The translations under genes and the position numbers were made by a program. Below, piece by piece: positions 4,092-24,200 of a DNA stretch of 37,650 nt. The number at the start of each line of letters is the position of its first letter. Position 1 is the stretch's first letter. Below the pieces are notes generated by a model, which worked only from the letters and a program-made list of their open reading frames with translations, was not told where the DNA came from and searched no databases. Source of the DNA: a virus; the IMG/VR virus record IMGVR_UViG_3300045988_125995; one strand, 5' to 3'.

Positions 4092-4121
4092 TTCAATCTT
4101 CCTTTCTTAGCGGGGGACGGC

Positions 4122-6149: not shown

Positions 6150-6224
6150 GCTGGTGTAGCTCAATGGAAGAGCGGCTGCTTCGTAAGCAGCCGGTTGAGG
6201 GTTCAAGTCCTTCTGCCAGCTCCA
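6150..6224 (+). tRNA. tRNA-Thr (anticodon CGT)
   Basis: Manual cloverleaf: acceptor GCTGGTG/TGCCAGC; D stem GCTC/GAGC; anticodon stem GCTGC/GCAGC with loop TTCGTAA (CGT at 6182-6184); T stem GAGGG/CCTTC with loop TTCAAGT; CCA encoded. Confidence 0.85.
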
Positions 6225-6227: not shown

Positions 6228-6302
6228 AGCAGAGAGAGTGCTGGTGCTCCTCCGGGACTCATAATTCCGGCTACGTCGGTTCGATTCCGGCCTCTGCTAC
6301 CA
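6228..6302 (+). tRNA. tRNA-Met-like (anticodon CAT; could equally be an Ile2/lysidine type), atypical D arm
   Basis: Acceptor AGCAGAG/CTCTGCT; anticodon stem CGGGA/TTCCG with loop CTCATAA (CAT at 6260-6262); T stem GTCGG/CCGGC with loop TTCGATT; CCA encoded. A at position 8 and a weak D stem. Confidence 0.6.
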
Positions 6303-6521: not shown

Positions 6522-7967
6522 TTGAAGAAGAAAGCGTCCGGAAATGTAAATATCGAGTGGGATCCGGGCGAGGTCAACCCGAAGCAGAAAGAATTCCTCG
6601 ACAGTCACACACTGTTCACCTGTTACGGCGGAGCAAAGGGCGGCGGCAAGACGCATATCGTCAGGATAAAGGCGATAGGCGCGGCGCTGGTGGGCTATCC
6701 GGGGATAAAGATACTCATAATGCGAAAGACGTATAACGAGCTGGAGGAAAACCACATCCGGCCGATACTGCGCATGGTGAGTCCGGAGCTGTTCAGCTAC
6801 AACAACACATCGCACTTGATGACCTTTGAAAACGGGTCAACCATCAAGTTCGGCCATTGGAGCGGAGAAGAGAGCTTCAACGAGTACAACGGCCTTGAAT
6901 ACGACTGGATTTTCATAGACGAGGCGACGCAGTTCACGGAGCGCGCCTTCAACTTCCTCGGCGGCTGTCTGCGAGGCGTGAACGACATTCCGAAGCGGAT
7001 GTACCTGACGTGCAACCCCGGCGGCGTAGGTCATGCCTGGGTCAAGCGGCTCTTCATCGACAGGGACTTCAAGCGAAGCGCGAACCCCGAAGAGGACGAG
7101 AATCCGGACGATTATACCTTCATCTTCGCAAAGGCGGAGGACAACACCTTCCTGCTCAAGTCCTCGCCTTTGTACCTGAAGAATCTAGCCCAGATGCCGG
7201 AGGAGCTTCGGCGCGCTTACCGTGACGGCGACTGGGACAGCATCGGCGGGAACTACTTCCCCGAAATGCTGAGTGGACGGAACGTGACGGCTCCGTTCAA
7301 GATACCGCAGCATTGGACGCGCTACCGCTCGTTTGACTACGGCCTTGATATGTTCGCCTGCTTCTGGTGGGCAGTGGACGAGGACGGGCGCTGCTGGTGC
7401 TACCGCTCGTTTGAGCATGAGGGGCTGATAGTAAAGGACGCGGCGAAGGCTGCGCTTGACCACACCCTTGCAAATGAGCAGATCATAGCGACATACGCGC
7501 CGCCCGATATGTGGAACCGGCAGAAAGAGACCGGCAAGACAATGGCGGAGTTGTTTCTCCTGAATGGCGTGAACATCGTGAGGAGCGACAATAACCGCGT
7601 ACAGGGGCACATGGTCATGAAAGACATGATGGCTCCGATAGCGCTGAAAGACCCCTATGTACAAAGCCTTTACCCCGCGGGGCAGGCTCCGGACAGACTG
7701 CCGGGGCTGATGTTCTTCGACGGGTGCAAGAAAGCAATCAGCGACCTGAAGGCGATACAGCAGGACGACAAGAACCCGAACGACTGCGCGAAAGACCCGC
7801 ACGAGATAACCCACACCGTTGACGGAATACGTTATTTCTGCGTGACGCGGGTTATAAGCGGTGAAGCCCTGCCGGAGCTTCAGCCGGAGGACGACGAGGA
7901 CGAGGACGGCGACAGCTACGAGCATTACATGTGCGGCGGCCGTGCCGACGCGAGATATTTACTGTGA
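6522..7967 (+). CDS. terL: Terminase large subunit
   Basis: TTG start 7 nt after GGGAGA. Walker A YGGAKGGGKTH; Walker B-like WIFIDEATQF; C-terminal nuclease-type region. No in-frame TAG. TGA stop. Confidence 0.9.
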   Translation: MKKKASGNVNIEWDPGEVNPKQKEFLDSHTLFTCYGGAKGGGKTHIVRIKAIGAALVGYPGIKILIMRKTYNELEENHIRPILRMVSPELFSYNNTSHLMTFENGSTIKFGHWSGEESFNEYNGLEYDWIFIDEATQFTERAFNFLGGCLRGVNDIPKRMYLTCNPGGVGHAWVKRLFIDRDFKRSANPEEDENPDDYTFIFAKAEDNTFLLKSSPLYLKNLAQMPEELRRAYRDGDWDSIGGNYFPEMLSGRNVTAPFKIPQHWTRYRSFDYGLDMFACFWWAVDEDGRCWCYRSFEHEGLIVKDAAKAALDHTLANEQIIATYAPPDMWNRQKETGKTMAELFLLNGVNIVRSDNNRVQGHMVMKDMMAPIALKDPYVQSLYPAGQAPDRLPGLMFFDGCKKAISDLKAIQQDDKNPNDCAKDPHEITHTVDGIRYFCVTRVISGEALPELQPEDDEDEDGDSYEHYMCGGRADARYLL

Positions 7968-7976
7968 GGTGACACG

Positions 7977-8375
7977 ATGGCAAAACCCGGCCCGAAGAGA
8001 AAATAGGACAGCCCTGACAAGCTGCGGGCAGCTGTCGAGGCCTACATAGAGAAGTGCGAGGCGGAAGGCATTTTCCCCGACGAAGCGGGAATGAGGCTTG
8101 AGCTTGGCGTTACGGCGCAGACCCTCGACAAATACTGCAAGGACGAGAACGCGGATGGGAAAGAGTTCCGCGAGATACTTTCGTGGGCGAAGGACAAGCG
8201 CGAAAGCTACCTCGTGCGGAAGATGACCAGCGACAACAAGGCGGCGCAGGGCTGCCTCAATGCGCTGAAGCAGCCGTCAAACGGCGGCTACATAGACCGG
8301 CCTGCCGACTCCGGCGGCGAGCGGAAGCTCACGATAAACCTTGTGGGAGTGGGCGGAGAGAGCGCCTTCAAGTAA
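7977..8375 (+). CDS. terS: Terminase small subunit-like protein, with in-frame TAG at codon 10 (8004-8006)
   Basis: ATG 7977 after GAGGTGA. Reads MAKPGPKRK[TAG]DSPDKLRAAVEAYIEKCEAEG...GVTAQTLDKYCK, the N-terminal motif plus HTH typical of TerS. The ORF-track fragment 8091-8375 is the same frame. TAA stop. Confidence 0.7.
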
Positions 8376-8386
8376 GGCGCGTATAT

Positions 8387-8470
8387 GGGCCGGTGGCAGA
8401 ATGGGATTGCGGCTGACTCTAAATCAGCTGCCTGACGGCGGAGAAGGTTCGATTCCTTCCCGGCTCACCA
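8387..8470 (+). tRNA. Amber-suppressor tRNA (anticodon CTA), class II with long variable arm and discriminator A73
   Basis: Acceptor GGGCCGG/CCGGCTC (one G-U pair); D stem GCAG/TTGC with loop AATGGGA; anticodon stem GCTGA/TCAGC with loop CTCTAAA (CTA at 8419-8421); 14-nt variable arm TGCCTGACGGCGGA; T stem GAAGG/CCTTC with loop TTCGATT; A then CCA encoded. Confidence 0.85.
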
Positions 8471-8487
8471 GAAAAAAGGAGATTACA

Positions 8488-8823
8488 TTGCTGACTATCA
8501 TACTTATCTTAATCTTTGCCGTGGTCTTCGTGGGCGCGCTTGCTGTTCTGCAACACAGCCTCTCAGGTAAAGCGGAAGAGGAAGACATGCTGGAACAGGT
8601 GGCGCGCCTTGCGAGAGCGCAGGAGCGGTTAAACACGCGGCTCGAAAAGCTGGAAGAGCAGGTCTTTCGGCAGAAGGGCGGCGAGCTTGACGAGATAAAA
8701 AGACGGCTCGAAGAGCTGGAGAGCGACACTGCGGGAGGCAACGCGGCGCTTGACCAGATGTTTCTCGCGGGGATCAACGGCATTATGAATTACGGCATGA
8801 AGGACGCAGTAAAGCGAGGCTGA
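8488..8823 (+). CDS. Membrane-anchored coiled-coil protein (about 111 aa), unknown function
   Basis: TTG start 7 nt after AAGGAG. N-terminal TM LTIILILIFAVVFVGALAVL followed by heptad-like LEKLEEQV...RLEELE. TGA stop. Confidence 0.55.
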   Translation: MLTIILILIFAVVFVGALAVLQHSLSGKAEEEDMLEQVARLARAQERLNTRLEKLEEQVFRQKGGELDEIKRRLEELESDTAGGNAALDQMFLAGINGIMNYGMKDAVKRG

Positions 8824-8826
8824 TAA

Positions 8827-10545
8827 ATGGGACAGTTTGATATTTTCTACGGCAAAAAGCTGCCTGATTAGCAGAGCGGCTGGCGGCTTTACGATGAGGC
8901 CGAACGCTTCAACTCCAACATAAACCTGCGCGAGACGGTGCGGGTGAACGAGAATTTCTACATTGGCAAGCAGTGGGAGGGCGTACAGTCCAACGGTCTG
9001 CCGACTCCGGTTTTCAACTTTATAAAGCGCGTCGTCGGCTTTGACGTGGCGACGATAACCTCGGACAACGTGAAGGTGACGGCCTCGCCGCTTGCGAACA
9101 CCGCGAACACCGACGGGCTTATAGAGCCGGTGCGGATAGTGAACGAGGAGTTTGACGCGCTGGCGGCAAGAAACAAGATATCCTCTCTGCTGAGAGAGTT
9201 TGCCCGCAATGCCGCGGTGGACGGCGACGGCTGCCTGTACACCTATTGGGACGCCGACGCGGAGACCGGCCAGCAGTCCAAGGGCATGATCCGGACGGAG
9301 ATAGTAGAAAACACGCGGGTGTACTTCGGGAACCCGAATGACCGGCGCGTACAGACCCAGCCGTGGATAATGATAGGCAGCCGCGAGATAACCCGCATCG
9401 TTCGCCGCAGGGCGAAGGAAAACGGGATGGCCGAGTGGCAGAGTATCAGCCCCGACTGCGAGGACGACAGCGTTGACACGGCGAAGGTGACGGACGACAA
9501 GACGACCGTGCTTCTGCTGCTGTGGCGCGACGAGGAGACGGGACACATATGGCAGTATGAATTCACACGCAATTCCGGTGTGACTGCCCCGATAGACACA
9601 AAGCTTTCGCTTTATCCTATCTGCTGGCTGAGCTGGGACTACGTGCAGGACTGCTATCACGGGCAGAGCATGGTGACGGGACTGACCCCGAACCAGATGT
9701 TCGTCAACAAGATTTGGGCGGCTGCGATGCTCTCGATGCTCCGCACGGCGTTCCCGAAATGGATATACGACAAGACCCGCATAAAGCGCTGGGACAACGG
9801 CGTCGGCACGGCAATCGGCATATCGGGCGGCGACGTATCAACGGTGGCGAAGGTGATAGACCCTGCCTCCATATCCCCGCAGGTGGCGCAGTTCATCGAC
9901 ATGGCGGTAAAGCAGACGGAAGAATGCCTCGGCGCTACGAGCGTTGCGCTCGGCGACACCCGCCCCGACAATACCTCCGCCATTATAGCCCTTCAGCGCG
10001 CAGCATCCACGCCGATGGAGATGACGAAGCTCAACCTTTATCAGGCGGTGGAGGACTTGTTCAGGATATACCTCGACTTCATGTCCGCCTACTACGGAGT
10101 GCGCGCGGTTGACATGGAGCCTACGCCGGAGATACGGCAGCAGTATGAATTTGCAGGGATGCCGGTTCCGGACTCCATCATTGCGGAATTCGACTTTGAC
10201 ACGTTGAAATTCCACCCGATGATGCTGAAGCTCGACGTCGGCGCAAGCTCCTACTACTCCGAGATAGCGTCAATCCAGACGCTGGATAATCTGCTAATGA
10301 ACGGGCATATCAACGCAATACAGTACCTTGAGAGAATCCCCGACGGCTATATACCGGCGCGCCGGGCATTGATAAACGAGCTGAAAGCAACGCAGGCCAT
10401 GAACGCGGTTCCGCCCGGAGCACCACCCAACGCGGCGACCGGCGACGTGGCGGCACAGGCAAAGCCGGAAATCCCCACGGGCGGCGGATTCTCTGATCTG
10501 CAACGCAAGGTGTTGGAGTCGGGATCGACTCAAGGACTTATCTGA
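8827..10545 (+). CDS. Portal protein, with in-frame TAG at codon 15 (8869-8871)
   Basis: ATG 8827 is in frame with ORF 8938-10545. Reads MGQFDIFYGKKLPD[TAG]QSGWRLYDEAERFNS..., then VNENFYIGKQWEG. About 570 aa and located next to the terminase. TGA stop. Confidence 0.8.
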
Positions 10546-10560
10546 CAGGAGGAAAAGAAA

Positions 10561-11058
10561 ATGAATGCACCTGACAAGGCGGCTGAGATAAAGGCCGCGA
10601 TAGCTGCATTTTTCGCTTTCCTGACGGCTCTCTGGGGCTGGCTGGGCTGGGCGATAATTGTGTGGCTGGGCTGCGTACTGCTGGACTATATCACCGGCAC
10701 GTGGGCGGCGAAATCCAACGGCGAATGGTCGAGCGCCGTTGCAAGAGCGGGGCTTTGGCACAAGCTGGGCGAGATAGTGGCGGTGCTGGTTGCGGCAATG
10801 TGCGATATCGCAATAGGCGTGATACTGAAAGGCTCCGGAATAGACTTCGGCATAGATTACAGTGTGTTGGTGACGCCGGTCGTGCTGCTGTGGTACATCG
10901 TAACTGAGCTGGGCTCCATTATTGAAAACGCAGGAAAGCTCGGCGCACCCATTCCCGAATGGCTGAAAAGGAGCCTGAAGAACTACAAGGATACGCTTGA
11001 CGCCAAAACCGGCGGCGGGGCGCATCTCCCCGAACACTCGGAAGAAGACAGGGAATAA
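10561..11058 (+). CDS. Holin (TcdE/phage holin family-4-like)
   Basis: Three hydrophobic helices. LDYITG..A.....WSS..........HK and TELGSIIENAGKLGAPIPEWL resemble toxin-secretion/phage-lysis holins. Confidence 0.7.
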   Translation: MNAPDKAAEIKAAIAAFFAFLTALWGWLGWAIIVWLGCVLLDYITGTWAAKSNGEWSSAVARAGLWHKLGEIVAVLVAAMCDIAIGVILKGSGIDFGIDYSVLVTPVVLLWYIVTELGSIIENAGKLGAPIPEWLKRSLKNYKDTLDAKTGGGAHLPEHSEEDRE

Positions 11059-11154
11059 GGCGAAAGCCTTTTCCCGTCTCTATAAGAATATATCCACCGG
11101 CATAGACCAATGCCGTAACATAGACCGCCGACCATAGCGGACAAGGAGAATTGA

Positions 11155-12045
11155 ATGTACGAAGAGATTAACGAAGCAGTTGAGACCGAAGGCGCTGAGG
11201 AATGGGCAGACAGCGACGCGTTCTGGGATGACGATCCCGCCGCGGAGACTGAACCCGCCGCAGAGCAGGAGGAGGCCGAGGGCGCCGAGGCTGACGAGCA
11301 GGAGGCGGAGGAGACCGATACTGCCGACGACCCTCACGACGAGGGCGCGGACGACGGAGCCGAGGAACCGGAGGGGCAGCAGGGTGAGAGCGCAGACCAG
11401 CGCTTTGAGCTCAAGCACCTTGAGGAGACACGGAGCGTTGACCGTGAAGAGGTTATAAAGCTTGCGCAGAAGGGCATGGATTACGACCGCATTCGAGAGG
11501 AACGCGACAGCATCCGCCCGGAACTGCGGCTTTACCGAGAATTCCTCAAGGAGCTTGCCGACGGCTCCGGACTGACCGTTTCGGAGCTGATAGACACGGT
11601 TCGGGCACAGCGCCTTGTGGCAAAAGAGAAGGAAAACGGCAAGGAGATGACCGAGGCCGAAGCACTGATAAAGGTGCAGCGCGAGCGCAGCGAGAAAGCC
11701 AAGAGCGCGCCCAAGGCCGAGGAAGAGGCTCCCCCGAAGGAAGAGAAGCCCGCAGAGGCTAAAGCGGAGGACTCCCGCAAGGAGAGCTTCGCACGGTTTG
11801 CAAGGGAATTCCCCGACGTCAAGGCCGAGGATATACCCGCCAAGGTATGGCAGGATTTTTCCGCCGGAAAAGGCGACCTTGCGGACATCTACGCGAGACA
11901 CGAGAACGCGGCGCTCAAGGCCAAGATTGCGGCCATGGAGCGCAACGAGGACAACAGAAAACGCTCCACGGGGAGCAGAAAAAGCAGCGGCGCAAAGGCG
12001 AAGGACATCTTCGACAGCGCATGGGAAGATTCACCCTACGACTGA
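11155..12045 (+). CDS. Scaffolding protein (acidic, coiled-coil)
   Basis: ATG after AAGGAGA. Highly E/D/A/K-rich and lies immediately upstream of the major capsid gene. Confidence 0.6.
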   Translation: MYEEINEAVETEGAEEWADSDAFWDDDPAAETEPAAEQEEAEGAEADEQEAEETDTADDPHDEGADDGAEEPEGQQGESADQRFELKHLEETRSVDREEVIKLAQKGMDYDRIREERDSIRPELRLYREFLKELADGSGLTVSELIDTVRAQRLVAKEKENGKEMTEAEALIKVQRERSEKAKSAPKAEEEAPPKEEKPAEAKAEDSRKESFARFAREFPDVKAEDIPAKVWQDFSAGKGDLADIYARHENAALKAKIAAMERNEDNRKRSTGSRKSSGAKAKDIFDSAWEDSPYD

Positions 12046-12083
12046 TTTTTCGCCTCCGGGAGCCATTAACGGAGGAAATATAA

Positions 12084-13145
12084 ATGGCAACTATAAATCT
12101 TATGGACAAGTGGGCGCCTCGCCTTGAGAAGCGCTTTACGACCGGCTCCATCACCGACAAGTGGTGCGGCACCAACTGGGAGTGGACCGGCGTTAACACC
12201 CTGAAGACTCTGACTCTGCTTACCGACCCCCTGAACGATTAGAACCCTGCGGCAAATGCGAACCGCTTCGGCACTATGACCGAGGTGGACGACGAGGCCA
12301 ACTCCTACACGCTGACCAAGAAGCGCAGCTTTGACAAAGCCTTTGACGAGACCAACGTGCAGGATCAGAACTTCCTCAAGAAGGGCGCGGCCTACCTCAA
12401 GCAGATGTGGGACGAGAGATACGTCCCTGAGATCGACACCTACCGTTTCGCCCGCTGGGCAGACGGCGCAGGTCTCGGCACTGTCGCTACGGCGGCTATC
12501 TCCAAGACCAATATCGTCGAGGCGCTGCTGAACGCTCACGCCGCGCTTGATGACGCGGGCGTCCCGATGGAAAACCGCGTTACCTTCATACGCAGCGACT
12601 ACGCTGTAAAGTACAAGCTTGCGGACGAGTTCAAGTATGAGGGCGCGAAGGAGTTCATCCAGAAACGCCAGATCGGCGAGGTCGAGGGCAGCCCGCTTAT
12701 CAAGGTTCCGAAGAACCGCTTCCCGGCCGGCGTGGCCTTCATGGTCAAGTACAAGCAGGCGACGGCAGACCCCGTAAAGATGCGTATGCTCCGCGCAAAG
12801 GACGACTCCGATGACCTGTGCGGCGTCCGTATGCAGGGTCTCGTCCGCTACGACAGCTTCGTGCTGGCGCAGAGCGCAGACGGCATCTATGTCTACGGCG
12901 AGAACGCAGGCAACGTGCTTCAGGCTCCGACCTTCTCCACCGCCTCAAACAAGGTGACTATCACGAGCGCCGACAGCGCAAGCATCAAGTACACCACTGA
13001 CGGCACCAACCCCAAGACCTCGGCGACTGCGCAGGCTTACAGCGCGGCTGTGACCATCACGGAGAACACCACGTTCAGAGCATACGCCTACGCGACCGGC
13101 AAGACCAGCTCCGCCATCGGCAGCTACGATGCGGTGAAGACCTGA
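12084..13145 (+). CDS. Major capsid protein with C-terminal Fn3/CHB_HEX_C-like decoration domain; in-frame TAG at codon 53 (12240-12242)
   Basis: ATG 12084 after GGAGGA. Reads MATINLMDKWAPRLEKRF...LLTDPLND[TAG]NPAANANRFGTMTEVDD, in frame with ORF 12276-13145, which has no SD of its own. C-terminus IKYTTDGTNPKTS...TTFRAYAYATGK. A strong terminator follows. Confidence 0.8.
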
Positions 13146-13151
13146 TCCAAT

Positions 13152-13180
13152 AAAGGGCAGAGCAATGCTCTGCCCTTTTT
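13152..13180 (+). terminator. Rho-independent terminator after the capsid gene
   Basis: AAAGGGCAGAGC-AAT-GCTCTGCCCTTTTT. Confidence 0.8.
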
Positions 13181-13199
13181 CAAAAGGAGCGAATAAAAA

Positions 13200-13634
13200 A
13201 TGACGACTGCGCAGGACGTATTTGAAGCCTCAATGGCTCTCATGGACGAGCTGAACGAGGCGAGCGGAGCCGCCGACACGGCGGACACCAAGGAATACAA
13301 AAACCGGACGCTGCCTGTCCTTAACATCCTGATAGGCGAGGTTTACCCGTATTCCGACACATACAAGAGCCGAAACGAGGGCAAGCGCCCGATCGTAACG
13401 GCGATAAGTGATTTTGACAGCAGCATCGGACTTGATGATTACATATGCCGCAGTGTGCTCCCTTACGGGCTGGCGGCACACCTGCTCATAGACGAGAACC
13501 CGGCCTCGGCAAGTTTCTTCCAGCAGCGCTACGACGAGCTGAAAGCGATGCTTCGGTTGGGCTTCCCGGAGGAATTTGAGCCGATAGAGGATATATACGG
13601 CGGGCTGGGCTGCGGCGACTTTGCCCGCTGGTGA
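13200..13634 (+). CDS. Hypothetical virion protein (144 aa), possible head-tail adaptor by position
   Basis: ATG after AAAGGAG. The position-based guess is the only evidence for function. Confidence 0.5.
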   Translation: MTTAQDVFEASMALMDELNEASGAADTADTKEYKNRTLPVLNILIGEVYPYSDTYKSRNEGKRPIVTAISDFDSSIGLDDYICRSVLPYGLAAHLLIDENPASASFFQQRYDELKAMLRLGFPEEFEPIEDIYGGLGCGDFARW

Positions 13635-13648
13635 AGCGAGGCGGATAA

Positions 13649-15466
13649 ATGGCGACTATAAGCGGCAGCACAAGCGAAAAGATATTCCAGATAAAAGCAT
13701 GGCTGGGGCTGAACGAGAACCCAGACGGCGATACCAAGCTGAAGCTTGGCGAGGCGGCGGCAATGCGTAACTTTGCCATTACGCGAGACGGGAATCTACG
13801 CCGCAGACCCGGCAGCAAGAAGATTGCAAGCCTCGGATCCTCCCCCGTGCGGGGCATGTGGACGGGCTACATAAACGGGAAAGAGGAGTTCATCGCCGCC
13901 TGCGGCGGCAAGCTCTGGCGGCTGTGGAACGCGGAGACGGGAGCCTTCACTGCGACCGAGATAGGCAGTATCGACACCACGAATGAGGTACATATGTTCG
14001 GCTTTTCCGAAATACTCTACCTCATAAACGGCAGCGAATACAAGCAGTATGACGGCACGACGCTTTCGGACGTCGGCGGGTACAGGCCGCTTGTGACGAT
14101 AGCCGTACCTCCGAGCGGCGGCGGGGAAACGCTGGAGGAGGTAAACAAGCTCGTAGGCACTCGGCGCTGCTGGATATCCCCGGACGGTAAGGCGGCGGAA
14201 TTCACGCTTCCGGAAAGCGGCTTGCAGAGCCTTGACTATGTGAAAGACCTGAAAACCGGCGAGAATTTGGCGGCGAGCGCATACACGGCAGACCTGACGG
14301 CAGGAACAGTGACCTTTACTGAAGTTCCGGCGCTCGGCGTAAACAGCCTTGAGATAGGCTGGACGATGGCGACGAACTTCCGCACACAGGTAAGCTCGAT
14401 GCGGTACAGCGAGCTTTACGACGGTGCGCAGGACACGCGGGTTTTCCTCTACGGCGACGGGAGCAATCAGGCGATATACTCAGGGCTTGACTACGACGGC
14501 AAGCCGAGGGCGGACTATTTCCCCGACCTGAACGTTGTGAACGTTGGCGATGCGAACACGCCCATCACCGGACTGATACGGCATTACTCCACGCTCGTTG
14601 CCTTCAAGTCGAGCAGCGCGTGGAGCATACGCACGAGCGAGCTTACGCTGGCCGACGGCGCAACGACGAAAGCCTTTTATGTATCGCCTATAAACAGGGC
14701 GATAGGCAACGCTGCGCTGGGGCAGACGCGCCTCGTGCTGAACTCGCCCAGAACGCTGCACGGCAAGGACGCTTTCGAGTGGCGGAACAACAGCAGCTAC
14801 TCCTCGAACCTGACGGCGGACGAGCGGCAGGCGAAGCGCATAAGTGACCGGATATACGCGACGCTGGGCGGCTTTGACCTTGCGAAATGCTACTGCTGGG
14901 ACGACAACGACAATCAGGAGTATTACATCTGCTATAACGGCAAGGCTCTTGTGCAGAACTACGCGGCGGACGCTTGGTACTGCTACGACGGCTTTGACGC
15001 GGTATGCATGGCGAACTTCCACGGCGCGCTTTACTACGGCACGTCCGGGGGCGCGATAGAGCATTTAGGCTACGAGCATATCACCGACGACGGGCGGGCT
15101 ATCGACGCATATTGGGAAAGCGGCTCGATGAGCTTTGGGCAGGATTACATGCGCAAATACTCCGCTCAGATATGGGTAGGCATAAAGCCGGAGGCAAACG
15201 GCGAAGTGACCGTTACGGCGCAGACAGACAGAAAAAGCACCTACGCCGAAAAGATTGTGGCGAGCCAGATGGCGAGCTTCAGGCGCGCGAACTTCCGGAA
15301 CTGGAGCTTTGGCACGAACCGCAAGCCGCATATGACAAGGCTGAAGATAAAGGCGAAGAAGTTCGTCTTTTATAAGCTTATATTCATGGCGGCGGAGCCT
15401 GACACGACATGCACGATACTTGCGGCGGATATGCGAGTGAGGTTTACCGGATATACGAAGGGGTGA
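13649..15466 (+). CDS. Large virion/tail structural protein (605 aa), possibly a tail tubular/nozzle-type protein
   Basis: Uninterrupted ORF in the late operon, beta-rich in composition. No tail tube, sheath or chaperone-frameshift genes are seen, which hints at a podovirus-like tail. Confidence 0.45.
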   Translation: MATISGSTSEKIFQIKAWLGLNENPDGDTKLKLGEAAAMRNFAITRDGNLRRRPGSKKIASLGSSPVRGMWTGYINGKEEFIAACGGKLWRLWNAETGAFTATEIGSIDTTNEVHMFGFSEILYLINGSEYKQYDGTTLSDVGGYRPLVTIAVPPSGGGETLEEVNKLVGTRRCWISPDGKAAEFTLPESGLQSLDYVKDLKTGENLAASAYTADLTAGTVTFTEVPALGVNSLEIGWTMATNFRTQVSSMRYSELYDGAQDTRVFLYGDGSNQAIYSGLDYDGKPRADYFPDLNVVNVGDANTPITGLIRHYSTLVAFKSSSAWSIRTSELTLADGATTKAFYVSPINRAIGNAALGQTRLVLNSPRTLHGKDAFEWRNNSSYSSNLTADERQAKRISDRIYATLGGFDLAKCYCWDDNDNQEYYICYNGKALVQNYAADAWYCYDGFDAVCMANFHGALYYGTSGGAIEHLGYEHITDDGRAIDAYWESGSMSFGQDYMRKYSAQIWVGIKPEANGEVTVTAQTDRKSTYAEKIVASQMASFRRANFRNWSFGTNRKPHMTRLKIKAKKFVFYKLIFMAAEPDTTCTILAADMRVRFTGYTKG

Positions 15467-15470
15467 AAAA

Positions 15471-16268
15471 ATGGCATTTACAAAACTGACAGAAGATATT
15501 GCATAGATAAGCAAGCTGGACGACGAGCCGAATGACGTTGACGGGCTTTCCGCCGACCAGCTGAAAGCGACGTTCGACAAGGCCGGGATTACTATCAAGA
15601 CGTGGATAAACACCGTTCTGCTCCCCGCGCTTGAGGGCAGCGCGGCTGCCGGAAACCTCGGCATAGCAGCAATATCCGGTCTTACCGGCATAGCAACTGT
15701 GCAGGCGGCGCTGGAAAAGCTTGAAGCGCAGATAAGTGAGGCGGCAGTCGGTGACATTCCAGACGCATCTCTCACAGCGGCAAAGCTGGCAGACAACGCT
15801 GTTACCGGAAGCAAGATAGCGGACGGCGCGGTAGGCTCGGCGAAGATAGCGGACGGTGCCGTGACATCGGGCAAGCTTGGCGCGGGCGCTGTAACGGCGG
15901 AGAAGATAGCAGCTCTAGCCGTTGCGACTGCGGCTATTGCGGAGCTGGCCATTACCACAGCGAAGATAGCAGACAAGGCCATTACCACAGCGAAGATAGC
16001 AGACAAGGCCGTCGGCACTTACCAGATGGACGACAGCAGCATTACGTCTGCAAAAATCAGAGGCGGAGTCGTTACAGCAGACAAGCTTGCGTCCGGCGCG
16101 GTTACTACCACAAAGCTTGGCGCGGGCGCAGTCACCGGCGAAAAGCTGGCAGCAGGTGCACCCAATACGGCAATGGCAGCGACGCGGTACAAACTGGTCA
16201 GCGGTGTACACTATGGCAGCTCTTTGCCGCCGGACATCGCAGACGACGAGCTGTTTTTCCTTGTATGA
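15471..16268 (+). CDS. Tail fibre-like protein with Ala/Gly/Val/Lys-rich ~10-residue repeats of the type (I/L)A-D/x-x-A(V/I)T-x-x-K; in-frame TAG at codon 12 (15504-15506)
   Basis: ATG 15471 after AAGGGGTG. Reads [11 protein letters not shown][TAG][27 protein letters not shown], in frame with ORF 15699-16268. Confidence 0.7.
15951..16010 (+). repeat. Perfect 30-bp tandem duplication inside the fibre repeat region
   Basis: ATTACCACAGCGAAGATAGCAGACAAGGCC occurs twice (15951-15980 and 15981-16010) and encodes [10 protein letters not shown] twice. Confidence 0.95.
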
Positions 16269-16276
16269 GGTGATGT

Positions 16277-16816
16277 ATGGCTACACTGAGTTTTGCCGTT
16301 ACGAACAGTGCTTGGAACTGGAGCGGCACGGTAAGCATTAACTACGAGGTCGAATACAACGAGGACGCGAATACGACCACGGTTACGTTCGCAGAGTCAA
16401 AGTTCACGTATTGGGGTCGCAATAACTACGGCACATCTGCCTCGGCGGATATAAGCGTTCAGGCTGCTGATAACACGGTGAGCAAGGGCGCTGCGCAGAT
16501 GTCCGCGTATGGCAACACGGCAAGCGGCTCAAAAGACTTTCCGGCTACGCCGTCGCCCACGTCTGTCACAGTGCAGCACAGCGACGCAGACGGGGAGAAG
16601 TCCATAGTCATATCGGCATCGGCTGTTGTTAAGGCGTACATGAGTTCCACCGCGACGCGCCAGACTGAAGGCACAGGTAGCGGGGCAGAAACCGTTGTGA
16701 GCGGAGAACATGCCTCGTCAAAGGCGGTAATTTACATAAACGGTACAGCCGTTAAGGCTGTGCCGTACATCGGAAAGAAAAAGGCTACGGCATACCGAGG
16801 CCGCACGAAGCTATAA
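16277..16816 (+). CDS. Virion/receptor-binding-associated protein, paralogue of 18646-19461
   Basis: N-terminal similarity of about 140 aa to the 18646 product (..TTVTF.ES.F.Y.GR..YGTSA...I.V.A.DN...G.A....YG.T..G.K.F..TPSP.S.TVQH...G.KSI.ISAS). Confidence 0.6.
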   Translation: MATLSFAVTNSAWNWSGTVSINYEVEYNEDANTTTVTFAESKFTYWGRNNYGTSASADISVQAADNTVSKGAAQMSAYGNTASGSKDFPATPSPTSVTVQHSDADGEKSIVISASAVVKAYMSSTATRQTEGTGSGAETVVSGEHASSKAVIYINGTAVKAVPYIGKKKATAYRGRTKL

Positions 16817-16825
16817 GGAGGACGC

Positions 16826-17134
16826 ATGACAATATTGCAGGGCGACGCATAGCTCATACCGATAGCATTGACAGCTGACGGCGAGCCTGTCACGGACGCG
16901 GATATTGAGGCGATGGAGGTCATTCTCGGCGGCATATCCAAGCTCTACCCGGACGAGCTGGGCTATGCCAACGGCGAGTTCCAGTTCCCGCTGACGCAGG
17001 AAGAGAGCTTCGCTATGGCAGAGGACAGATACGACCTTCTGATACGGCCTAAGTTTGCCGACGGCACCGTGTCGGGCGTACTCAAGGCAGGGGAGATAGA
17101 GGTCGTAGCGACAGACACGAGGAGAGTGCTGTGA
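16826..17134 (+). CDS. Small virion protein; in-frame TAG at codon 9 (16850-16852)
   Basis: ATG 16826 sits 4 nt after AAGGAGG. Reads MTILQGDA[TAG]LIPIALTADGEP..., in frame with ORF 16868-17134, whose TTG start has no SD. Confidence 0.65.
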
Positions 17135-17418
17135 TGAGAACCGTGACGGCAAAGATGCAGCGGGTGCGGCGGATAAGCGCCAACATTGGCGCAGGCTCAC
17201 AGCTCGCTCTTGACCTCGGAATAAAGATAACGGCCGACACGTCGCCAAAATATACCGGAGAATATGACGTGCGGCCTAAGACTTACGAGCCGGTGGTGCT
17301 GGAGACGAAGGGACGCTCAATGCTGGACGACGTGACAGTGCAGAAAATCCCGCAGTTCGAAGTTTCAAACGACGCGGGCGGGAAAACACTTATTTTGGGG
17401 GATGAATATTATGGCTAA
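17134..17418 (+). CDS. Small virion protein (94 aa)
   Basis: ATG 17134 overlaps the upstream TGA (TGATG). GGAGAG lies 7 nt upstream. TAA stop. Confidence 0.55.
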   Translation: MRTVTAKMQRVRRISANIGAGSQLALDLGIKITADTSPKYTGEYDVRPKTYEPVVLETKGRSMLDDVTVQKIPQFEVSNDAGGKTLILGDEYYG

Positions 17419-17995
17419 CTAGTTCAACAAGGTAATACTCGGTACAGAGGTAAAGCTTGACCTTACGGGCGACGACATAACCGCGGCTGACCTGAAGAAG
17501 GGTATCAAAGCGCACGACAAGAGCGGAGCGCCAATCGTCGGCACGAATACGAACGACGCGAACACCTCGGACGCGACGGCGACTGCGGCGGAAATACTCA
17601 AGGATAAAACCGCTTATGTGGCAGGTTCCAAGCTGGCCGGCACGATGCCGAACAACGGGGCAAAGACACTTGAAATAGCTACCAAGGACGGCACACCACC
17701 CATCCCCATGGGCTTTCACGACGGCAGCGGCAAGGCGCAGATAGCGGCGGCGGAGAAAGCAAAGCTTATCCCCGAAAACATCCGCGAGGGCATAACAGTG
17801 CTCGGCGTAGCCGGTTCTATGTCCGGTTCCGAAGGAATGAAGCCGCAGGCAAAGTCTGTCACTCCGAGCTTCGCAAGTCAGGAGGTTCTGCCCGACAGCG
17901 GCTACAATTGCCTGTCCTCGGTGACGGTCGCGGCGATACCTGTTTCAGAAGCAGCCAACGCGGCGGGAGGAATAACGCTCACGATAGGAGGCTGA
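17411..17995 (+). CDS. Tail fibre/spike N-terminal-module protein (paralogous N-terminus to 17997-18641); in-frame TAG at codon 4 (17420-17422)
   Basis: Reads MAN[TAG]FNKVILGTEVKLDLTGDDITAADLKKGIKAHDKSG, in frame with ORF 17618-17995. The neighbour starts MGVSKVIIDDEVKLDLTADTVEPAALKAGYTAHNAAG. Confidence 0.65.
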
Positions 17996-17996
17996 C

Positions 17997-18641
17997 ATGG
18001 GAGTAAGCAAGGTCATTATAGATGACGAAGTTAAGCTTGACCTGACGGCGGACACGGTAGAGCCGGCGGCGCTCAAAGCAGGGTATACAGCGCACAACGC
18101 AGCAGGAAACAAAATAGTGGGGACTATGTCGGCTTCGGGTGGCACTTTTAAGGTAACGGTGACGTTCTACCCCGATACACATATGTGTACTTCGGACAAA
18201 ACATTGCAGGAGGCTCTGGCCGCCTACAATGCGGGTATGCTGCCTTACGTCGAGTTTCACAGTTATGATGCCGTGGAATTCTATGAAATGCAGGCCAAGA
18301 GTGATGCCGAGATAATATTTGTGCATTACTTTATGTCGTTCAACGCCTCCAACGATGGTATTGTAATGCCCTCAATGGGGTGCTACTCCATTACCCTCAC
18401 TGACGACGGCGCAATTCTGGACGACTCCGGTTCGAGCGACGTGGTAAGCTATGTGGCAGTTAACCCAAACCTCAATGCGCCTTCAGAAGATACCGTGCCA
18501 AGTACGCAATGCGTCTCGAACGCGCTAAGCAAAAAGCTCAACAAGCAGCTTGTGGCCGGAGAAGACTACTTTGACAGTGAGGCTGCGCTGCCTGCGCCCG
18601 GAACTGTCGGGAGAATATATTTTGTAAAGGCGGAGGCGTGA
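17997..18641 (+). CDS. Tail fibre/spike protein, second copy of the N-terminal module with a different C-terminal domain
   Basis: ATG overlaps the upstream stop (TGACATG). Shares the KV...EVKLDLT..T......K.G..AH...G..IVGT motif with 17411-17995. Confidence 0.6.
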   Translation: MGVSKVIIDDEVKLDLTADTVEPAALKAGYTAHNAAGNKIVGTMSASGGTFKVTVTFYPDTHMCTSDKTLQEALAAYNAGMLPYVEFHSYDAVEFYEMQAKSDAEIIFVHYFMSFNASNDGIVMPSMGCYSITLTDDGAILDDSGSSDVVSYVAVNPNLNAPSEDTVPSTQCVSNALSKKLNKQLVAGEDYFDSEAALPAPGTVGRIYFVKAEA

Positions 18642-18645
18642 AGCC

Positions 18646-19461
18646 ATGGCGCAGCTTTCATATACCGCGGAGCTAACTGCTTATAGCTGGACAGGCTCGA
18701 CGTATATAAACTATACGGCGCGTTACGACCCAGTTGCGAATGCGACAACGGTAACATTTGAGACTTCCGAGTTCAGTTACTATGGCAGAAGCGGCTACGG
18801 TACATCGGCCGAGGCAACTATTACCGTTACAGCTTCCGACAACTCCGGCAGCAGCGGCTCGGCAACTCTGAGCACCTACGGTTCAACGAATGGCGGCACG
18901 AAGTCCTTCACGGGAACACCGTCCCCCGCGAGCATCACAGTGCAGCACGCCGCAGGCGGAGGCGCGAAGAGCATCAACATAAGCGCCAGCAGCACGATTA
19001 AAGTCTACCCGACTTCATGGCTGAAGTCGCAAAAGACGGCAACGGGCAGCGGCAGTGCGAGCGAGACGGCAGGTACGGCGTATGTATTTCACAAAAGCGT
19101 GTCTGAAGGCGTAGCACAGGCGGATGTATATGACAGAACCAACACTCGAAGTGCAAAGCTTGCGGAAGGCGATTTGCTGTGTGCTGGAGATGTAATTCAG
19201 CTTTACAGGGCAGCCGCAGACGGCTATGAGCTGACGGCGGCGCACTTCGGCGGTGGCGGTATCGTTGACGACGGAGCTACGCACACGGTTACTGGCGAGA
19301 CAACAGTAACAGTAACTGCGAAGAAATCTGTCCCGAAGGGTTACGTGAAAATCGACACCGGGCAGGCACTTGTGAACTACTGCGCGATGATAGATACCGG
19401 CACGGGGTACGTCAGGTATAGAGCTTATATAGACACCGGAACTAAAATAGTTCCGTATTGA
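18646..19461 (+). CDS. Virion/receptor-binding-associated protein, paralogue of 16277-16816 with an extra C-terminal domain
   Basis: See 16277-16816. 271 aa. TGA stop. Confidence 0.6.
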   Translation: MAQLSYTAELTAYSWTGSTYINYTARYDPVANATTVTFETSEFSYYGRSGYGTSAEATITVTASDNSGSSGSATLSTYGSTNGGTKSFTGTPSPASITVQHAAGGGAKSINISASSTIKVYPTSWLKSQKTATGSGSASETAGTAYVFHKSVSEGVAQADVYDRTNTRSAKLAEGDLLCAGDVIQLYRAAADGYELTAAHFGGGGIVDDGATHTVTGETTVTVTAKKSVPKGYVKIDTGQALVNYCAMIDTGTGYVRYRAYIDTGTKIVPY

Positions 19462-19474
19462 TAAGGAGGACAAT

Positions 19475-20245
19475 ATGGCAAAGACAAATACCGGACTCGT
19501 CGAGTACGCACTGGCGCAACTGGGCAAGCCCTACTGGTGGGGCACCTTCGGGCAGACGGCCTCGGCGGCGCTGCTCGCGCAGAAGCGTGAGCAGTACCCG
19601 GATAGGTATGACTCGTATGGCGACGAGTGCAAGAAGCAGTATGGCCAGAAGGTACATGACTGCGTCGGGCTTATCAAGGGCTATCTTTGGAGCGACACAC
19701 CGGACAGCGAGCCTATATACAAGGCGGCGCAGGACGTGGCGGTATCTGGGCTGTATCTGGTCTGCCCTGAAAGCGGCAGCATCGACACCATGCCTGACAT
19801 ACCGGGCGTGTGCGTGTTTATGCGGGACATGTCCCACGTCGGCGTTTACGTCGGCGGCGGCTACGTCGTAGAGGCAACCGGCCACGCGCGCGGCGTGGTC
19901 AAGACCAAGCTTGCAGGGCGCGGCTGGGGGCTGTGGGGCAAGCCCCGCTGGATAAGTTACGAGGCTGCTGCCACTCCAGCACAGCCTGCACAGACCGCAC
20001 AGACCACCGCCTCGGGGCTGACCGTCACCGGCCTGCCGCTGCTGCGCTACGGCGACAAGGGAGAGTGCGTCCGCTCGGCGCAGATGCTCCTCATCGGGCG
20101 CGGCTACTCCTGCGGCAGGTGCGGCGCGGACGGCGAAATAGGGCAGGACACTTTCAATGCGGCGGTGGCGTACCAGCGCGCCTGCGGCTTGCAGCAGGAC
20201 GGTATCATAGGCGCTCAGACTTGGGCGCGGCTGATAGGAGGTTAA
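19475..20245 (+). CDS. Endolysin: NlpC/P60-type peptidase plus C-terminal peptidoglycan-binding (PG_binding_1-like) domain
   Basis: LGKPYWWG...HDCVGLIKGY (Cys) and SHVGVYVGGGYVVEA (His). C-terminus GDKGECVRSAQMLL..GY.....DGEIGQDTFNAAVAYQRACGLQQDGIIGAQTW. Confidence 0.85.
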   Translation: MAKTNTGLVEYALAQLGKPYWWGTFGQTASAALLAQKREQYPDRYDSYGDECKKQYGQKVHDCVGLIKGYLWSDTPDSEPIYKAAQDVAVSGLYLVCPESGSIDTMPDIPGVCVFMRDMSHVGVYVGGGYVVEATGHARGVVKTKLAGRGWGLWGKPRWISYEAAATPAQPAQTAQTTASGLTVTGLPLLRYGDKGECVRSAQMLLIGRGYSCGRCGADGEIGQDTFNAAVAYQRACGLQQDGIIGAQTWARLIGG

Positions 20246-20248
20246 GGC

Positions 20249-21196
20249 ATGGCAACCTTTGAGGAAACCTACAGCAAGTACAATGCTGACCGTGCATCTG
20301 CTATAAACGGAATGTACGACGCTCAGAAAGCCGCTACGCTCAGTCAGCTTGAGAGCGCATAGAACCAGAACCGGCAGACACAGGAGGCGGCCAAGAACCA
20401 GATAGCGCCGACGTATCAGCAGAGGGCGAATGACCTCGCGGTGCAGTATGAGCGCAACCGCCGGAACTTCAACCAGCAGGCGGCGGGCAGCGGCCTCAAC
20501 ACCGGCACGGCGTCGCAGGCGGCGCTCGCCCAGAACAGCACTTGGCAGAGGGATTACGGCAATCTCCGCACGGCGGAGGCGGACGCACTGACGGAGGCTG
20601 ACCGGCAGATGGCGGCGCTTGAGACGCAGTACAAGTCCGCAGTTGCTCAGGCGATAGCCGAGAACGACTACAACCGCGCAAAAGCGCTCATGGACGAGTA
20701 CGGCAATCAGGAGTCCCGCGACGCGACAATGGCGAAGATACTTGCTGGCTACGGAGACTTCAGCGGCTACGCAAAGCTCTACGGCGACGACGCTGCAAAC
20801 AACATGGCGCAGTATTGGATATACTCAAACCCGCAGCTTGCTTACAGTATGGGCAAGATAAGCGCAGACGAGTATGCAAGGCTGACCGGGAAGCGCACCG
20901 GCGGCAAGGCGACCGGAGGCAAAACGCTCAGTGAGGCTTTCACTGATGATAAATATGGGCAGGATTACACCAGCAACGGTCTTAACCTCACGGATATGAT
21001 GGAACTCATCAATAAGGGCGACACGCTTTCGGCTCTCAGACAGGCAGAGGCTTTCGCCGCAGATGCCTACGCAAACCCCGACAAATACACCGACTCTCAA
21101 ATTGAGCGAATGGTCGAACTCAAAAGAATGGCGCAGAGAGGCCAGAAGATTAGCGGTTCGGTTGGCGGCGGGCGGAACCTCGACGCACTTAGATAA
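20249..21196 (+). CDS. Q/A/N-rich coiled-coil virion protein; in-frame TAG at codon 38 (20360-20362)
   Basis: ATG 20249 after AGGAGG. Reads ...ATLSQLESA[TAG]NQNRQTQEAAKNQIAPTYQQRAND, in frame with ORF 20441-21196, which starts at an internal GTG. Confidence 0.65.
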
Positions 21197-21211
21197 CAGA
21201 AAGGTGTCATT

Positions 21212-24200
21212 ATGGCAAGTAGAGAAGAAAACCTCAGATACCTTGCGGGCGGCAGTTTGCCAAAAGATACCGGAGCCGCAAACGGATCCAGTATTACTGG
21301 CACTAAGGAAGTGCAAACTGATGGACTGAGCGAAAAAGCTCGACGCAGAGAAGAGAACCTCAGATACCTTGCTACGCCTGCGGAGGACATCACTCCGAAA
21401 AACGAGACCGTCGAGAACAGCAGCTTCACGAGCAAGAGCGGCAAGTTTGACGCTTCTGCCGCGGCTCCTACCGCCGACTATACCCAGCAGCGCGCGAAGC
21501 TGCAAAAGGAGCTTGACAGGCTCGACAACGCCGCCGCATACGTGACGACCACGGAGCAGAGCGACGAGATAGACGCGCAGCGCAAGCCCATAATAGAACA
21601 GCTGCGCAAGCTCGACGAGGCGGAGGGCAAGACCGGCGTATACACCGGCGGCGACCGGCTGAAAAACGCCCTCGGCAACGCGAAGCTTGCGACTCAGCAG
21701 GGCTTGACGCAGGCTGACCACCGGATAGCCCAGACCGCCGACTGGCTCTTCGGCGGCATCGCCAAGGAGGGCAAGGCGCTTGTGAACGCTACCCTTCAGA
21801 CGATAAACCCCAACTGGGGCTTCGAGGACGAAGACCCGTGGATTACGAGATATAACAAGCGCGGGACTGAGGTGCTGGCACAGAACGACGCCGTAGCCCA
21901 GCGGCGCATTGAGGAAGGCAAGCTCAACAAGACCGCTTGGAAGTATGCCCCCGAAGTCGTGGCCGCTATCCCCGACGCTGTGCTGGCCTTTGCGACAGGC
22001 GGCGCGAGCACCGGCGCACAGGCGACGAGAGCGGGGCTTGAGACGGCTTCGGCCATAGCGCAGGGCAGCAGCGCGGCGCAAAAGCTCATCCCAATTGCGG
22101 ACGCTACGAAGAACATGATGAAGTCTCCCGCGTGGTTGAGCGCCTTTGCGCAGACCGCGGGCGGAAGCTACGAGGAGGCACTGGCCGACGGCGCGACGGA
22201 GGAGCAGGCGAACCTCTACGCGCTCCTCAACGGCTTTGCGAACGCTACGATTGAAGTCGGCGGTACTGACGAGGCGATGGGCGGTATTCAGAAGCTGCCG
22301 CAGCAGCTCAGAGACGCGCTCGAAAAGGGCAACAAGCGCGCCGTTATGCAGTGGGTACGGAGCCCGGCGGGCGAGGCGATAGAAGAAGTGCTTCAGGGTA
22401 TGGCCGAGAAGGGACTGCGCGGGCTTTATACGAACGACGTTCCGCTTTACTCGGAAACCGACGAGAACGCGGTAATAAACCCGAAGCGCGCCAAGGAAGA
22501 AGCCCTCGGCGGACTCATCGTCGGCGGTGTACTCGGCGGCGGGCAGATGGCCATACAGTCCGCTATCAACAGCGGCAGGGGGCAGAACGCGAACGGCGCC
22601 CAGACGGCGCAGGAGACGCAGAACGCGGCGGGGGATATCTCCGCACCACCCACGCAGGAGAACGCCGACACGGGCGCTTCTGCGCGGTTAAACTCCGACG
22701 TACAGACCGACGTGGACTCACAGAACGCAGAGGACATAAAAAAAGCAGCCTCCGAGGCTGCAAATGCCGATATAACGGGAGACTCGCGCGTCGCCAATGC
22801 CGAAGCCTCGCGTAGCACGTCCGAAACGAAAAATGCACTCTCTCCCGCGGCGGAAGCAGATGCTTCCAATGCCAATATAGCACCGGAAGCGCAGAATGTC
22901 AATCCCAACGTCCCCGCGCAAACGGTGGAGGAGTCCGGCGGGAAGAAGCGGAGTCAGACCGAGGCGCACACCCTCCAGACGATAGACGAGCGCCTTGACA
23001 CTCCGGCGGCGGAGCGCGAGGAGCTGTATTATATCCCGAAATCCGAGAGCGAGAGTCTGCGCGAGGCGGCGGAGCGTATACGCGAGGACATGCCCGGAGC
23101 GCGGGCGGAGCTTGCGGCGAAGGACATGTGGAGCGGGACTGACCACGACACGGCAATGGGCATACTCGGATCACTGAACCGTGAGGCCGCGCAGACCGGC
23201 AATTATGACGACTTCCGCGCATGGCGCAGGACGATACAGGAACACGGCACGGACACGGCGCGGGCTTTGCAGTCCCTCGCCAAGTACACGCGCACCGGAA
23301 CAGGGGCGATGATGGACGCGGTGGATATCATCGACAGCTCCAACATAAGCGGCGAGCTTAAATCTGCGCTCACGGCAGAGGTCGGGCGTTACTCCGAGGA
23401 GTACGACGCGGCGCGAGCCAAGGCCGAAAACGGCAATCTCGCCGACATGGCAGACCTCATAGAGCGCATGGCGAGGCGGCGCAACACTTGGACTTTCGGC
23501 AAGAACCGATACAGCAAGATCGTCCGCGAGCTCGCGTCGGACAAGTCGAACGCTGAATGGCTCACGGACTACGCATACAGGCAGATATCCGCAATAGCAA
23601 GCGACGCCGCGGTGAAGGTTCCCTTCTCGCAGAAGGTGAAGAGCGCGCAGACGACGGCACAGCTCACGAGCATCGGGACGTTTCTCCGGAACATCGGCGG
23701 CAACGTCACCTTCGGAGTGCAGGACACGCTCTCTCAAAACGGTGTAGCTCTCGCCATTGACCGCCTCATCTCGCAGGCGACGGGGAAAAGAACCGTCGGC
23801 GCGGACAAAAGCTGGTTTTCCTCCGAGGCGAGGAAGGGCGCACGGGACGCGATGCAGAAATCCATACTTGAAGTCGCGGGCGACATCGACATGAACGGCA
23901 ATGAGAACCGCTACGGAATGACGTCGAGCCGGTCATGGAGGATGAGCGGAAACGCGGCGGAGCGCTTCATGTCCCGCTGGCAGCAGCTTCTCGGCTACTC
24001 GCTGACGACCTCCGACCGCTTCTCCCGCGGCGCGATAGAGGCGGAGATCACGCGAGGGCTTGACGCTCTTGGCAACAGCGGGCTGACGGCGGAGGAAAAG
24101 GCTGCCATTGCAAAGCAAACCGCCGACTACCGCCTGTTTCAGAATCACGGCGAAGCTTACAAAGCCTCAAAGGCGATACATGACTTTTTCAACGTCGCCG

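Follow-up and report, generated by a model that had tools for sequence, protein, structure and literature searches.

Seven start-proximal TAG codons in the late genes of a temperate gut phage are probably read as tyrosine by a phage-encoded suppressor tRNA

The window analysed here is the whole of IMG/VR virus record IMGVR_UViG_3300045988_125995, a stretch of 37,650 nucleotides (nt). Its first and last 119 bases (1-119 and 37532-37650) are identical, which indicates a closed circular phage genome with a unit of 37,531 bp. Seven genes of its late block each contain one in-frame amber codon (TAG) close to the start, and the same block encodes a putative amber-suppressor tRNA with a CUA anticodon. 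We consider it likely, as the best explanation of the data as a whole, that the late virion genes are translationally conditional on this tRNA-Tyr-like suppressor. An initial annotation of the window had already proposed that TAG is a sense codon in the late module. It missed the CUA tRNA, Tyr as the likely residue, the bias towards 5' ends in its own list of codons and the TAG stops outside the late operon.

Every coordinate and codon number that had been given for the seven TAGs was right (Table 1). The seven upstream ATGs have a strong Shine-Dalgarno (SD) sequence, with anti-SD duplex energies of -6.9 to -12.2 kcal/mol, and a value of -6 is reached by only 13% of the start-like triplets in the late region. 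The internal starts that the standard code would impose range from +0.3 to -6.3 kcal/mol. Five of these seven are at -1.8 or weaker, so the earlier statement that they have no SD holds for most of them but not for all. Alignments to homologues run through the TAG in the small terminase (terS), the portal, the major capsid protein (MCP), the tail fibre, g16826 and g20249. The match of terS to phrog_606 begins at residue 2 and covers residues 2-86, and that of the MCP to phrog_422 begins at residue 1 and covers residues 1-274, both spanning the TAG. The portal TAG is crossed by alignments to 40+ homologues, and the fibre homologues align across theirs from residue 1. For g17411, the match to phrog_13589 begins at residue 5. 

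Although neighbouring codons carry substitutions, the same TAGs recur in 17-18 independent assemblies of 88-98% nucleotide identity; they are therefore neither consensus errors nor recent lesions. This recurrence, the strong upstream SD sequences and the homology across the TAG bear out the view that the genes are not pseudogenes, that TAG is sense in the late module and that the internal starts are not used. The base 3' of the TAG is A in three cases, C in two, and G and T in one each, with no clear context signal. In public protein collections, the MCP is held as a 289-aa N-terminally truncated call (12276-13145), in one cluster of 98 members and as an exact sequence in 146 blocks, and a variant with TAT at this site is present at its full length of 353 aa (cluster of 56 members).

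One check proposed in the initial annotation and one of its arguments carried less weight. Freeing TAG makes the open reading frames (ORFs) continuous at the seven sites, but the seven N-terminal extensions add 1,086 nt in total, 2.9% of the 37,531 bp, and no large gain in coding density. The total length of ORFs of at least 100 codons grows with any freed stop codon, so this measure does not discriminate. It is also true that no late gene ends in TAG (12 of the 19 end in TGA and 7 in TAA). We rejected this as evidence for recoding, because TAG accounts for only 42 of 533 late-gene stops (7.9%) in suppressor-less relatives and its absence from 19 genes therefore has P ~0.2.

Table 1. Coordinates of the features discussed in the text. 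Positions are those of the window unless another contig is named.
Feature	Position	Strand	Remarks
Small terminase terS, 132 aa	7977..8375	+	TAG 8004-8006, codon 10; SD -6.9 kcal/mol
Portal, 572 aa, P22_portal-like	8827..10545	+	TAG 8869-8871, codon 15; SD -7.8 kcal/mol
Major capsid protein (MCP), 353 aa	12084..13145	+	TAG 12240-12242, codon 53
Tail-fibre-like protein, 265 aa	15471..16268	+	TAG 15504-15506, codon 12
g16826, virion-module protein, 102 aa	16826..17134	+	TAG 16850-16852, codon 9; SD -12.2 kcal/mol
g17411, tail-module protein, 194 aa	17411..17995	+	TAG 17420-17422, codon 4
g20249, late protein, 315 aa	20249..21196	+	TAG 20360-20362, codon 38; SD -10.9 kcal/mol
Putative amber-suppressor tRNA, anticodon CUA	8387..8470	+	ARAGORN; Rfam tRNA model 56 bits, E 1e-9
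Late block (packaging, virion, lysis)	6522..26239	+	19 genes, from terL (6522) to the 1675-aa gene ending at 26239; contains the CUA tRNA and all seven TAGs
ORF directly after the CUA tRNA	8488-8823	+	111 aa; TTG start; AAGGAG 7 nt upstream
Codon 39 of the 1675-aa gene	21326..21328	+	CTG here, TAG in L004 and L006 (lineage-specific gain)
Genuine TAG stop, 151-aa gene (2948-3403)	2948..2950	-	next in-frame stop 21 codons on; conserved in L001, L004, L006 and L014
Genuine TAG stop, 119-aa gene (26333-26692)	26333..26335	-	TAA immediately after
Genuine TAG stop, sigma-70-like factor (28172-28711)	28172..28174	-	TAA after three sense codons (TAG GAG GAT GAA TAA)
tRNA-Thr(CGU)	6150-6224		just upstream of terL
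tRNA-Met(CAU)-like gene	6228-6302		just upstream of terL
Tyrosine-type integrase	300-1601		temperate phage; no in-frame TAG
Minus-strand gene block	about 1.8-5.2 kb	-
Minus-strand gene block	about 26.3-34.7 kb	-
Lightly recoded gene, contig L017	993-1787	-
Lightly recoded gene, contig L040	5163-5957	-
Lightly recoded gene, contig L065	5428-6222	-
Lightly recoded gene, contig L065	11894-13366	-
Lightly recoded gene, contig L050	2438-3910	+
Lightly recoded gene, contig L027	1449-2036	+
Lightly recoded gene, contig L027	4100-4597	+

A cognate suppressor tRNA is encoded by the phage in about 35-50% of reported recoded-phage cases. The CUA tRNA of this genome comprises 84 nt and belongs to class II, with a long variable arm (3 bp), a G1-C72 pair, the discriminator A73 and an encoded CCA. 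Located inside the late operon, ~380 nt downstream of the first TAG, it is separated by 11 nt from the stop codon of terS and by 17 nt from the ORF that follows, whose SD begins 6 nt after the CCA. Since no sigma-70-like promoter was found directly upstream, the tRNA is probably cut out of the late transcript; the candidate promoters, at about 5.3-6.1 kb, precede terL and two other tRNAs of the phage. A search of positions 8300-8700 for ribozymes and other Rfam families matched only tRNA at E<=10, the presence of a theta-ribozyme model in Rfam 15 being unconfirmed. BLAST of the CUA tRNA against phage records and E. coli genomes gave no match.

All 17 assemblies of the lineage with coverage of this site contain the CUA tRNA, and the TAG codons co-occur with it in 17/17. 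The variation of the tRNA includes a change from G2:U71 to A2:U71 that keeps the pairing. About 90 more distant relatives have no in-frame TAG in their late genes and no CUA tRNA in the fetched flanks; they comprise several viral contigs and 80 prophages or contigs with portal identities of 50-68%, nearly all of which come from genomes of Oscillospiraceae or other Clostridia. Because both are absent from these relatives, the tRNA and the TAGs appear to have arisen together in one young lineage. Within the lineage the sites turn over. The MCP codon is TAT in the 97%-identical relatives L014 and L015, the g17411 site is CAC in the same two and CAT in L395, and codon 482 of the 1675-aa gene is TAG in L014 and CAG in this genome. 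Eight of the nine TAG sites known across the lineage are 5'-proximal.

We compared the residues that homologues carry at the TAG positions. The MCP column holds Tyr in 119/119 database proteins and in 67 of 70 loci, with TAC as the codon in L008, L009, L013 and L016. At the g20249 site, homologues read Tyr (27), Phe (9) and Ala (1). Those of g16826 read QGDA followed by Tyr, Phe or Cys (Y12, F5, C5, L2), and the nearest suppressor-less homologue of terS, from L016, reads KRKY, with Tyr in four more homologues. Tyr is thus the commonest residue at these last three sites and dominates four of the six testable ones. Over the six sites together, Tyr has a summed column log2-likelihood of -18.6 and Phe one of -25.8, while no other residue exceeds -40.

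The CUA tRNA has the architecture of a tRNA-Tyr, namely class II, G1-C72, A73 and an anticodon one base from GUA. In a reference set of unique class II sequences from the fetched loci (166 for Tyr, 77 for Leu and 81-82 for Ser), this discriminator is found in 94% of the Tyr, 94% of the Leu and 5% of the Ser tRNAs. Plain similarity cannot assign the isotype, as the best GUA tRNA is 74% identical outside the anticodon arm and Leu or Ser tRNAs reach 70-71%, and we therefore used masked profile hidden Markov models (HMMs) together with the discriminator base. The isotype HMMs were built with the 17-nt anticodon arm removed and had a held-out accuracy of about 97%; the anticodon arm had served to select the Tyr training set before it was masked. 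In five of five splits the suppressor ranked as Tyr (17-21 bits), then Ser (16-17), then Leu (8-13).

We conclude that UAG is probably read as Tyr, and infer with good support that the host tyrosyl-tRNA synthetase (TyrRS) charges the CUA tRNA with Tyr, as in a natural supF. Several observations weigh against tyrosine. The portal column varies, with Pro as its main residue besides A, C, V, H, Y and others, and the fibre column is Ile or Val in 31 of 34 homologues. The suppressor body is weakly Tyr-like, at 17-21 bits compared with about 40 for true members and 0-4 bits over Ser. In relatives, the codons that newly became TAG were CTG and CAG. Finally, scans of viral and metagenome contigs for a GUA parent, by the same anticodon arm with GUA, returned hundreds of tRNA-Tyr genes, none of them close. 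The fibre homologue with the highest-identity alignment (L072, 64%) carries His.

The TAGs are sparse and their position is biased. They account for 7 of 6,425 late codons (0.11%) and 7 of 261 Tyr-like codons, with one in each of seven of the 19 late genes; TerL, the holin, the scaffold, the endolysin and the 1675-aa gene have none in this genome. All seven are located at codon 53 or earlier; in five cases, no other Tyr-like codon precedes the TAG in the gene. This 5' bias among the 261 Tyr-like codons has a hypergeometric P of 3.5e-6, with a threshold picked after seeing the data, and a threshold-free Fisher combination gives P 3e-4. Outside the late block, three minus-strand genes end at a genuine TAG stop. 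The meaning of TAG, as predicted from these gene models, is split by module, being sense in the late block and stop in the three minus-strand genes. Four additional in-frame TAGs suspected on the minus strand (33413-34237, 29443-30090, 2301-3140 and 26330-26848) were discarded, as ordinary starts downstream of the TAG explain all of them. The sigma-70-like factor, which contains Sigma70_r2 and Sigma70_r4 (regions 2 and 4) and is possibly a late-gene activator, would gain four residues under suppression.

In heavily recoded contigs (L031, L034, L056 and L018) the TAGs are spread along the genes, with a median relative position of 0.44 in heavily recoded loci. Unrelated low-GC contigs with class I CUA tRNAs (75-76 nt) contain lightly recoded genes that start at an ATG with a strong SD and have their first in-frame TAG at codon 2-23. 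Their N-termini include MFCLNYYPSQKYIx and the signal peptide MKNKFVxTCLIAS, where x marks the TAG. Lightly recoded phages may in general have their ambers near the 5' end, although this set of contigs is anecdotal. Another viral contig, L203, encodes a 90-nt CUA tRNA with a long variable arm (3842-3931) and, 130 nt downstream, a tRNA resembling a UUA (ochre) suppressor (4060-4131); this phage may suppress two stop codons.

In a standard-code host, release factor 1 (RF1) terminates translation at UAG. The phage tRNA, charged by the host TyrRS, would compete with RF1 at this codon, and with too little of it the gated genes would yield just 3- to 52-residue peptides. Because the tRNA must be cut from the same late transcript, the gated output would depend on late transcription twice, as mRNA times tRNA. 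Such a double dependence would damp leaky expression in lysogens and delay the virion proteins relative to TerL. The 5' placement would make failed read-through cheap and leave no long truncated subunits to poison assembly. The decoding steps are well supported; for the hypothesis that recoding has a regulatory purpose, we put the chances at slightly under even. Four points tell against regulation. The CUA tRNA is seemingly co-transcribed with its targets, with no separate early switch evident. The holin and endolysin are free of TAG, although in other recoded phages a bias towards lysis genes has been reported. Changes from TAG to TAT and to CAC or CAT are tolerated in relatives, and weak purifying selection alone would also yield the 5' bias.

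The alternative that survives best is near-neutral codon capture, which disputes the function of the TAGs and not their decoding. Once a Tyr suppressor is present, a change from TAY to TAG would be almost synonymous and would survive at cheap 5' ends. This account is quite plausible, though we would not favor it outright. It is in line with the turnover at 88-98% identity described above, including the two TAGs gained in the 1675-aa gene (codons 39 and 482), with the small share of Tyr-like codons that are TAG, with the ungated lysis genes and with a tRNA that sits in the operon of its own targets under no obvious separate control. Drift leaves unexplained, however, why the tRNA was acquired and kept in 17/17 genomes before any TAG needed it. 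Moreover, four of the seven sites are a conserved Tyr or Tyr/Phe in essential proteins, and there the TAG is kept in nearly all sampled genomes. In the unrelated lightly recoded phages, too, about 20 codons at most seem to separate the start from the first TAG, an anecdotal point.

A more elaborate regulatory scheme, which we regard as unlikely, is that the 5'-proximal ambers and the operon-embedded tRNA form a threshold or positive-feedback switch through nonsense polarity. The location of the tRNA gene, downstream of the first TAG, would make positive feedback possible. In the absence of the tRNA, ribosomes would halt at terS codon 10 and at codons 4-53 of the other gated genes, exposing long untranslated mRNA in the situation where nonsense polarity and mRNA decay are classically strongest. 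The downstream late operon, tRNA gene included, would then lose transcription or stability. As tRNA accumulates, read-through would restore translation and transcript integrity and commit the cell to virion production. If this were true, the 5'-proximal amber design would be general in lightly recoded phages, as hinted by L017, L027, L040, L050 and L065.

Two alternatives concern the inserted residue. Charging of the class II suppressor with Leu or Ser is conceivable, since the leucyl- and seryl-tRNA synthetases do not read the anticodon, and we judge it improbable. A73 suits Leu as well as Tyr, the D-arm (UGGCAGAAUGGG) is Leu/Ser-like by eye, the Ser HMM scores 0-4 bits below Tyr, the fibre column is filled by Ile or Val, and the extra TAG of L004 and L006 replaces a Leu codon. 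Leu nevertheless obtains the lowest HMM score, 8-13 bits against about 44 for true tRNA-Leu. A Ser tRNA would rarely have A73, and 84 nt is short for one. Either residue would replace the invariant capsid Tyr and occupy three Tyr/Phe positions, and the MCP site alternates between TAG and TAT within the lineage. Ordinary genetic code 15, in which TAG encodes Gln as in crAss-like, Lak, Garnet and Topaz phages, has very little probability. TAG to Gln is the sole amber reassignment reported for phages with a code unlike that of their host (Borges et al., 10.1101/2021.08.26.457843), and the new TAG of L014 replaces a CAG codon. Gln, however, aligns with a TAG site in only 1 of ~380 homologue columns (the portal of L072), and its likelihood is more than 20 log2 units below that of Tyr. 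The long variable arm also places the suppressor in class II, but tRNA-Gln belongs to class I, and the class I CUA tRNAs of other phages have 75-76 nt. As Tyr and not Gln fits the TAG columns, code 15 appears to be essentially excluded here. That the TAGs are real stops, reflecting pseudogenes, assembly errors or truncated proteins made from internal ATG, GTG or TTG codons, is hardly credible: standard gene callers do give truncated products such as the 289-aa capsid call, but the same TAGs occur in assemblies from different samples, homology and strong SD sequences lie upstream of them, most internal starts have no SD, a cognate suppressor tRNA is present, and the genome is otherwise intact and circularly closed.

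A known parallel for the proposed decoding is E. coli supF (su3+), a class II tRNA-Tyr with A73 whose CUA anticodon is one base from GUA and which inserts Tyr at UAG against RF1. supF is a laboratory mutation of a host gene, whereas the gene described here is natural and conserved in a phage, has seven dependent essential genes and has a body weakly like known tRNA-Tyr. In Streptomyces, bldA encodes a tRNA-Leu(UAA) that gates genes with a rare TTA codon. By analogy, one tRNA gene would in both cases make a small gene set conditional through one special codon each, although the codon is a stop in a phage here and a rare sense codon in a cellular developmental regulon there. NCBI genetic code 29 (Mesodinium nuclear) reads TAA and TAG as Tyr. 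It resembles the present case in TAG as Tyr, but code 29 is genome-wide and eukaryotic, and in the 37.5-kb phage genome TAA is still a stop and TAG carries both meanings.

With the code 15 gut phages and prophages (crAss-like, Lak, Garnet, Topaz; Borges et al., 10.1101/2021.08.26.457843; Peters et al., PMC9523058), this phage shares a standard-code host and TAG as sense in late genes. These phages also often encode a CUA suppressor tRNA, have an integrase without any in-frame TAG and end some genes outside their late block with TAG; the role proposed there too is control of late gene expression. The present phage differs from them in the probable use of Tyr, not Gln, from heavily recoded loci in having one TAG per recoded gene, always near the start, and from other recoded phages in that its lysis genes are not recoded. 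Among suppressor tRNAs linked to theta ribozymes in gut phages, a Tyr isotype was predicted for 1.1% of 180 tRNA-Sup genes (Kienbeck et al. 2024, PMC10879173). Neither alignments in favour of Tyr decoding nor codon positions were presented in that study. The HDV-like ribozyme that would be expected within about 5 nt of the 3' end of such a tRNA was not found adjoining the CUA tRNA, which has just 17 nt to the next ORF. In the literature we found no paper on alignment-supported Tyr decoding of a phage TAG or on a 5' positional bias of recoded stops.

The initial annotation presented the genome as a compact example of the recoding known from gut phages. The phenomenon is indeed known, but the genome is a distinct variant, sparse and oddly placed, which combines a Tyr-type amber suppressor, seven 5'-proximal UAGs and TAG stops outside the late block. 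In phages with a code unlike the host's, only TAG to Gln and TGA to Trp had been seen (Borges et al., 10.1101/2021.08.26.457843), and the present case extends these reassignments to a probable TAG to Tyr. It is close to minimal, with one tRNA gene and seven codons in a 37.5-kb temperate phage. Seven changes from TAG to TAC, or one change of the anticodon, would restore the standard code, which makes the regulatory hypothesis directly testable. Why phages recode, and whether recoding regulates late genes, are questions that this small tractable system addresses, and the 5'-end placement, if general, informs on the cost or purpose of recoding. Because TAG as sense adds just about 1.1 kb, screens based on coding density probably miss this phage. 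Annotation tools assume that TAG encodes Gln, and a default re-annotation of this kind would mistranslate the seven genes.

The phage is common in public data from many gut metagenomes, with more than 100 assemblies of it. Portal relatives suggest, at the family level only, that its host is an Oscillospiraceae bacterium. A comparison of the late region with 50,697 GenBank phage records by megablast gave no match to an annotated relative, and an exact search for 28 nt of the suppressor in 185,579 species-representative genomes found no lysogen. A public 75,191-bp contig, the source of L390, was considered as an integrated prophage and set aside; it is ~2x the genome unit and so probably an assembly concatemer without host flanks. 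The minus-strand blocks encode a HicB-like protein, a DnaJ-domain protein, a helix-turn-helix (HTH) regulator, a dUTPase, the sigma-70-like factor and a Dam methylase.

Within the late block, terL precedes terS (6522-8375), the opposite of the usual order. The product of the ORF that follows the CUA tRNA has an N-terminal transmembrane helix and a coiled-coil-like tail, and suppressor-less L016 has a 99-aa ORF at this place without the tRNA. The tRNA-Met(CAU)-like gene has an irregular D-arm and falls below the Rfam gathering score. In many relatives, an extra tRNA-like element with an aberrant anticodon loop is located between this gene and tRNA-Thr. TerL has 634 aa in L388 (3788-5692) and L395 (1716-3620), compared with 481 aa here, and a weak LAGLIDADG_3 match suggests that a homing endonuclease or an intein has been inserted in the longer forms. 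In the early region of the close relative L388, a 65-aa gene (1515-1712, minus strand) has a precomputed Pfam match to AcrIC5, an anti-CRISPR family.

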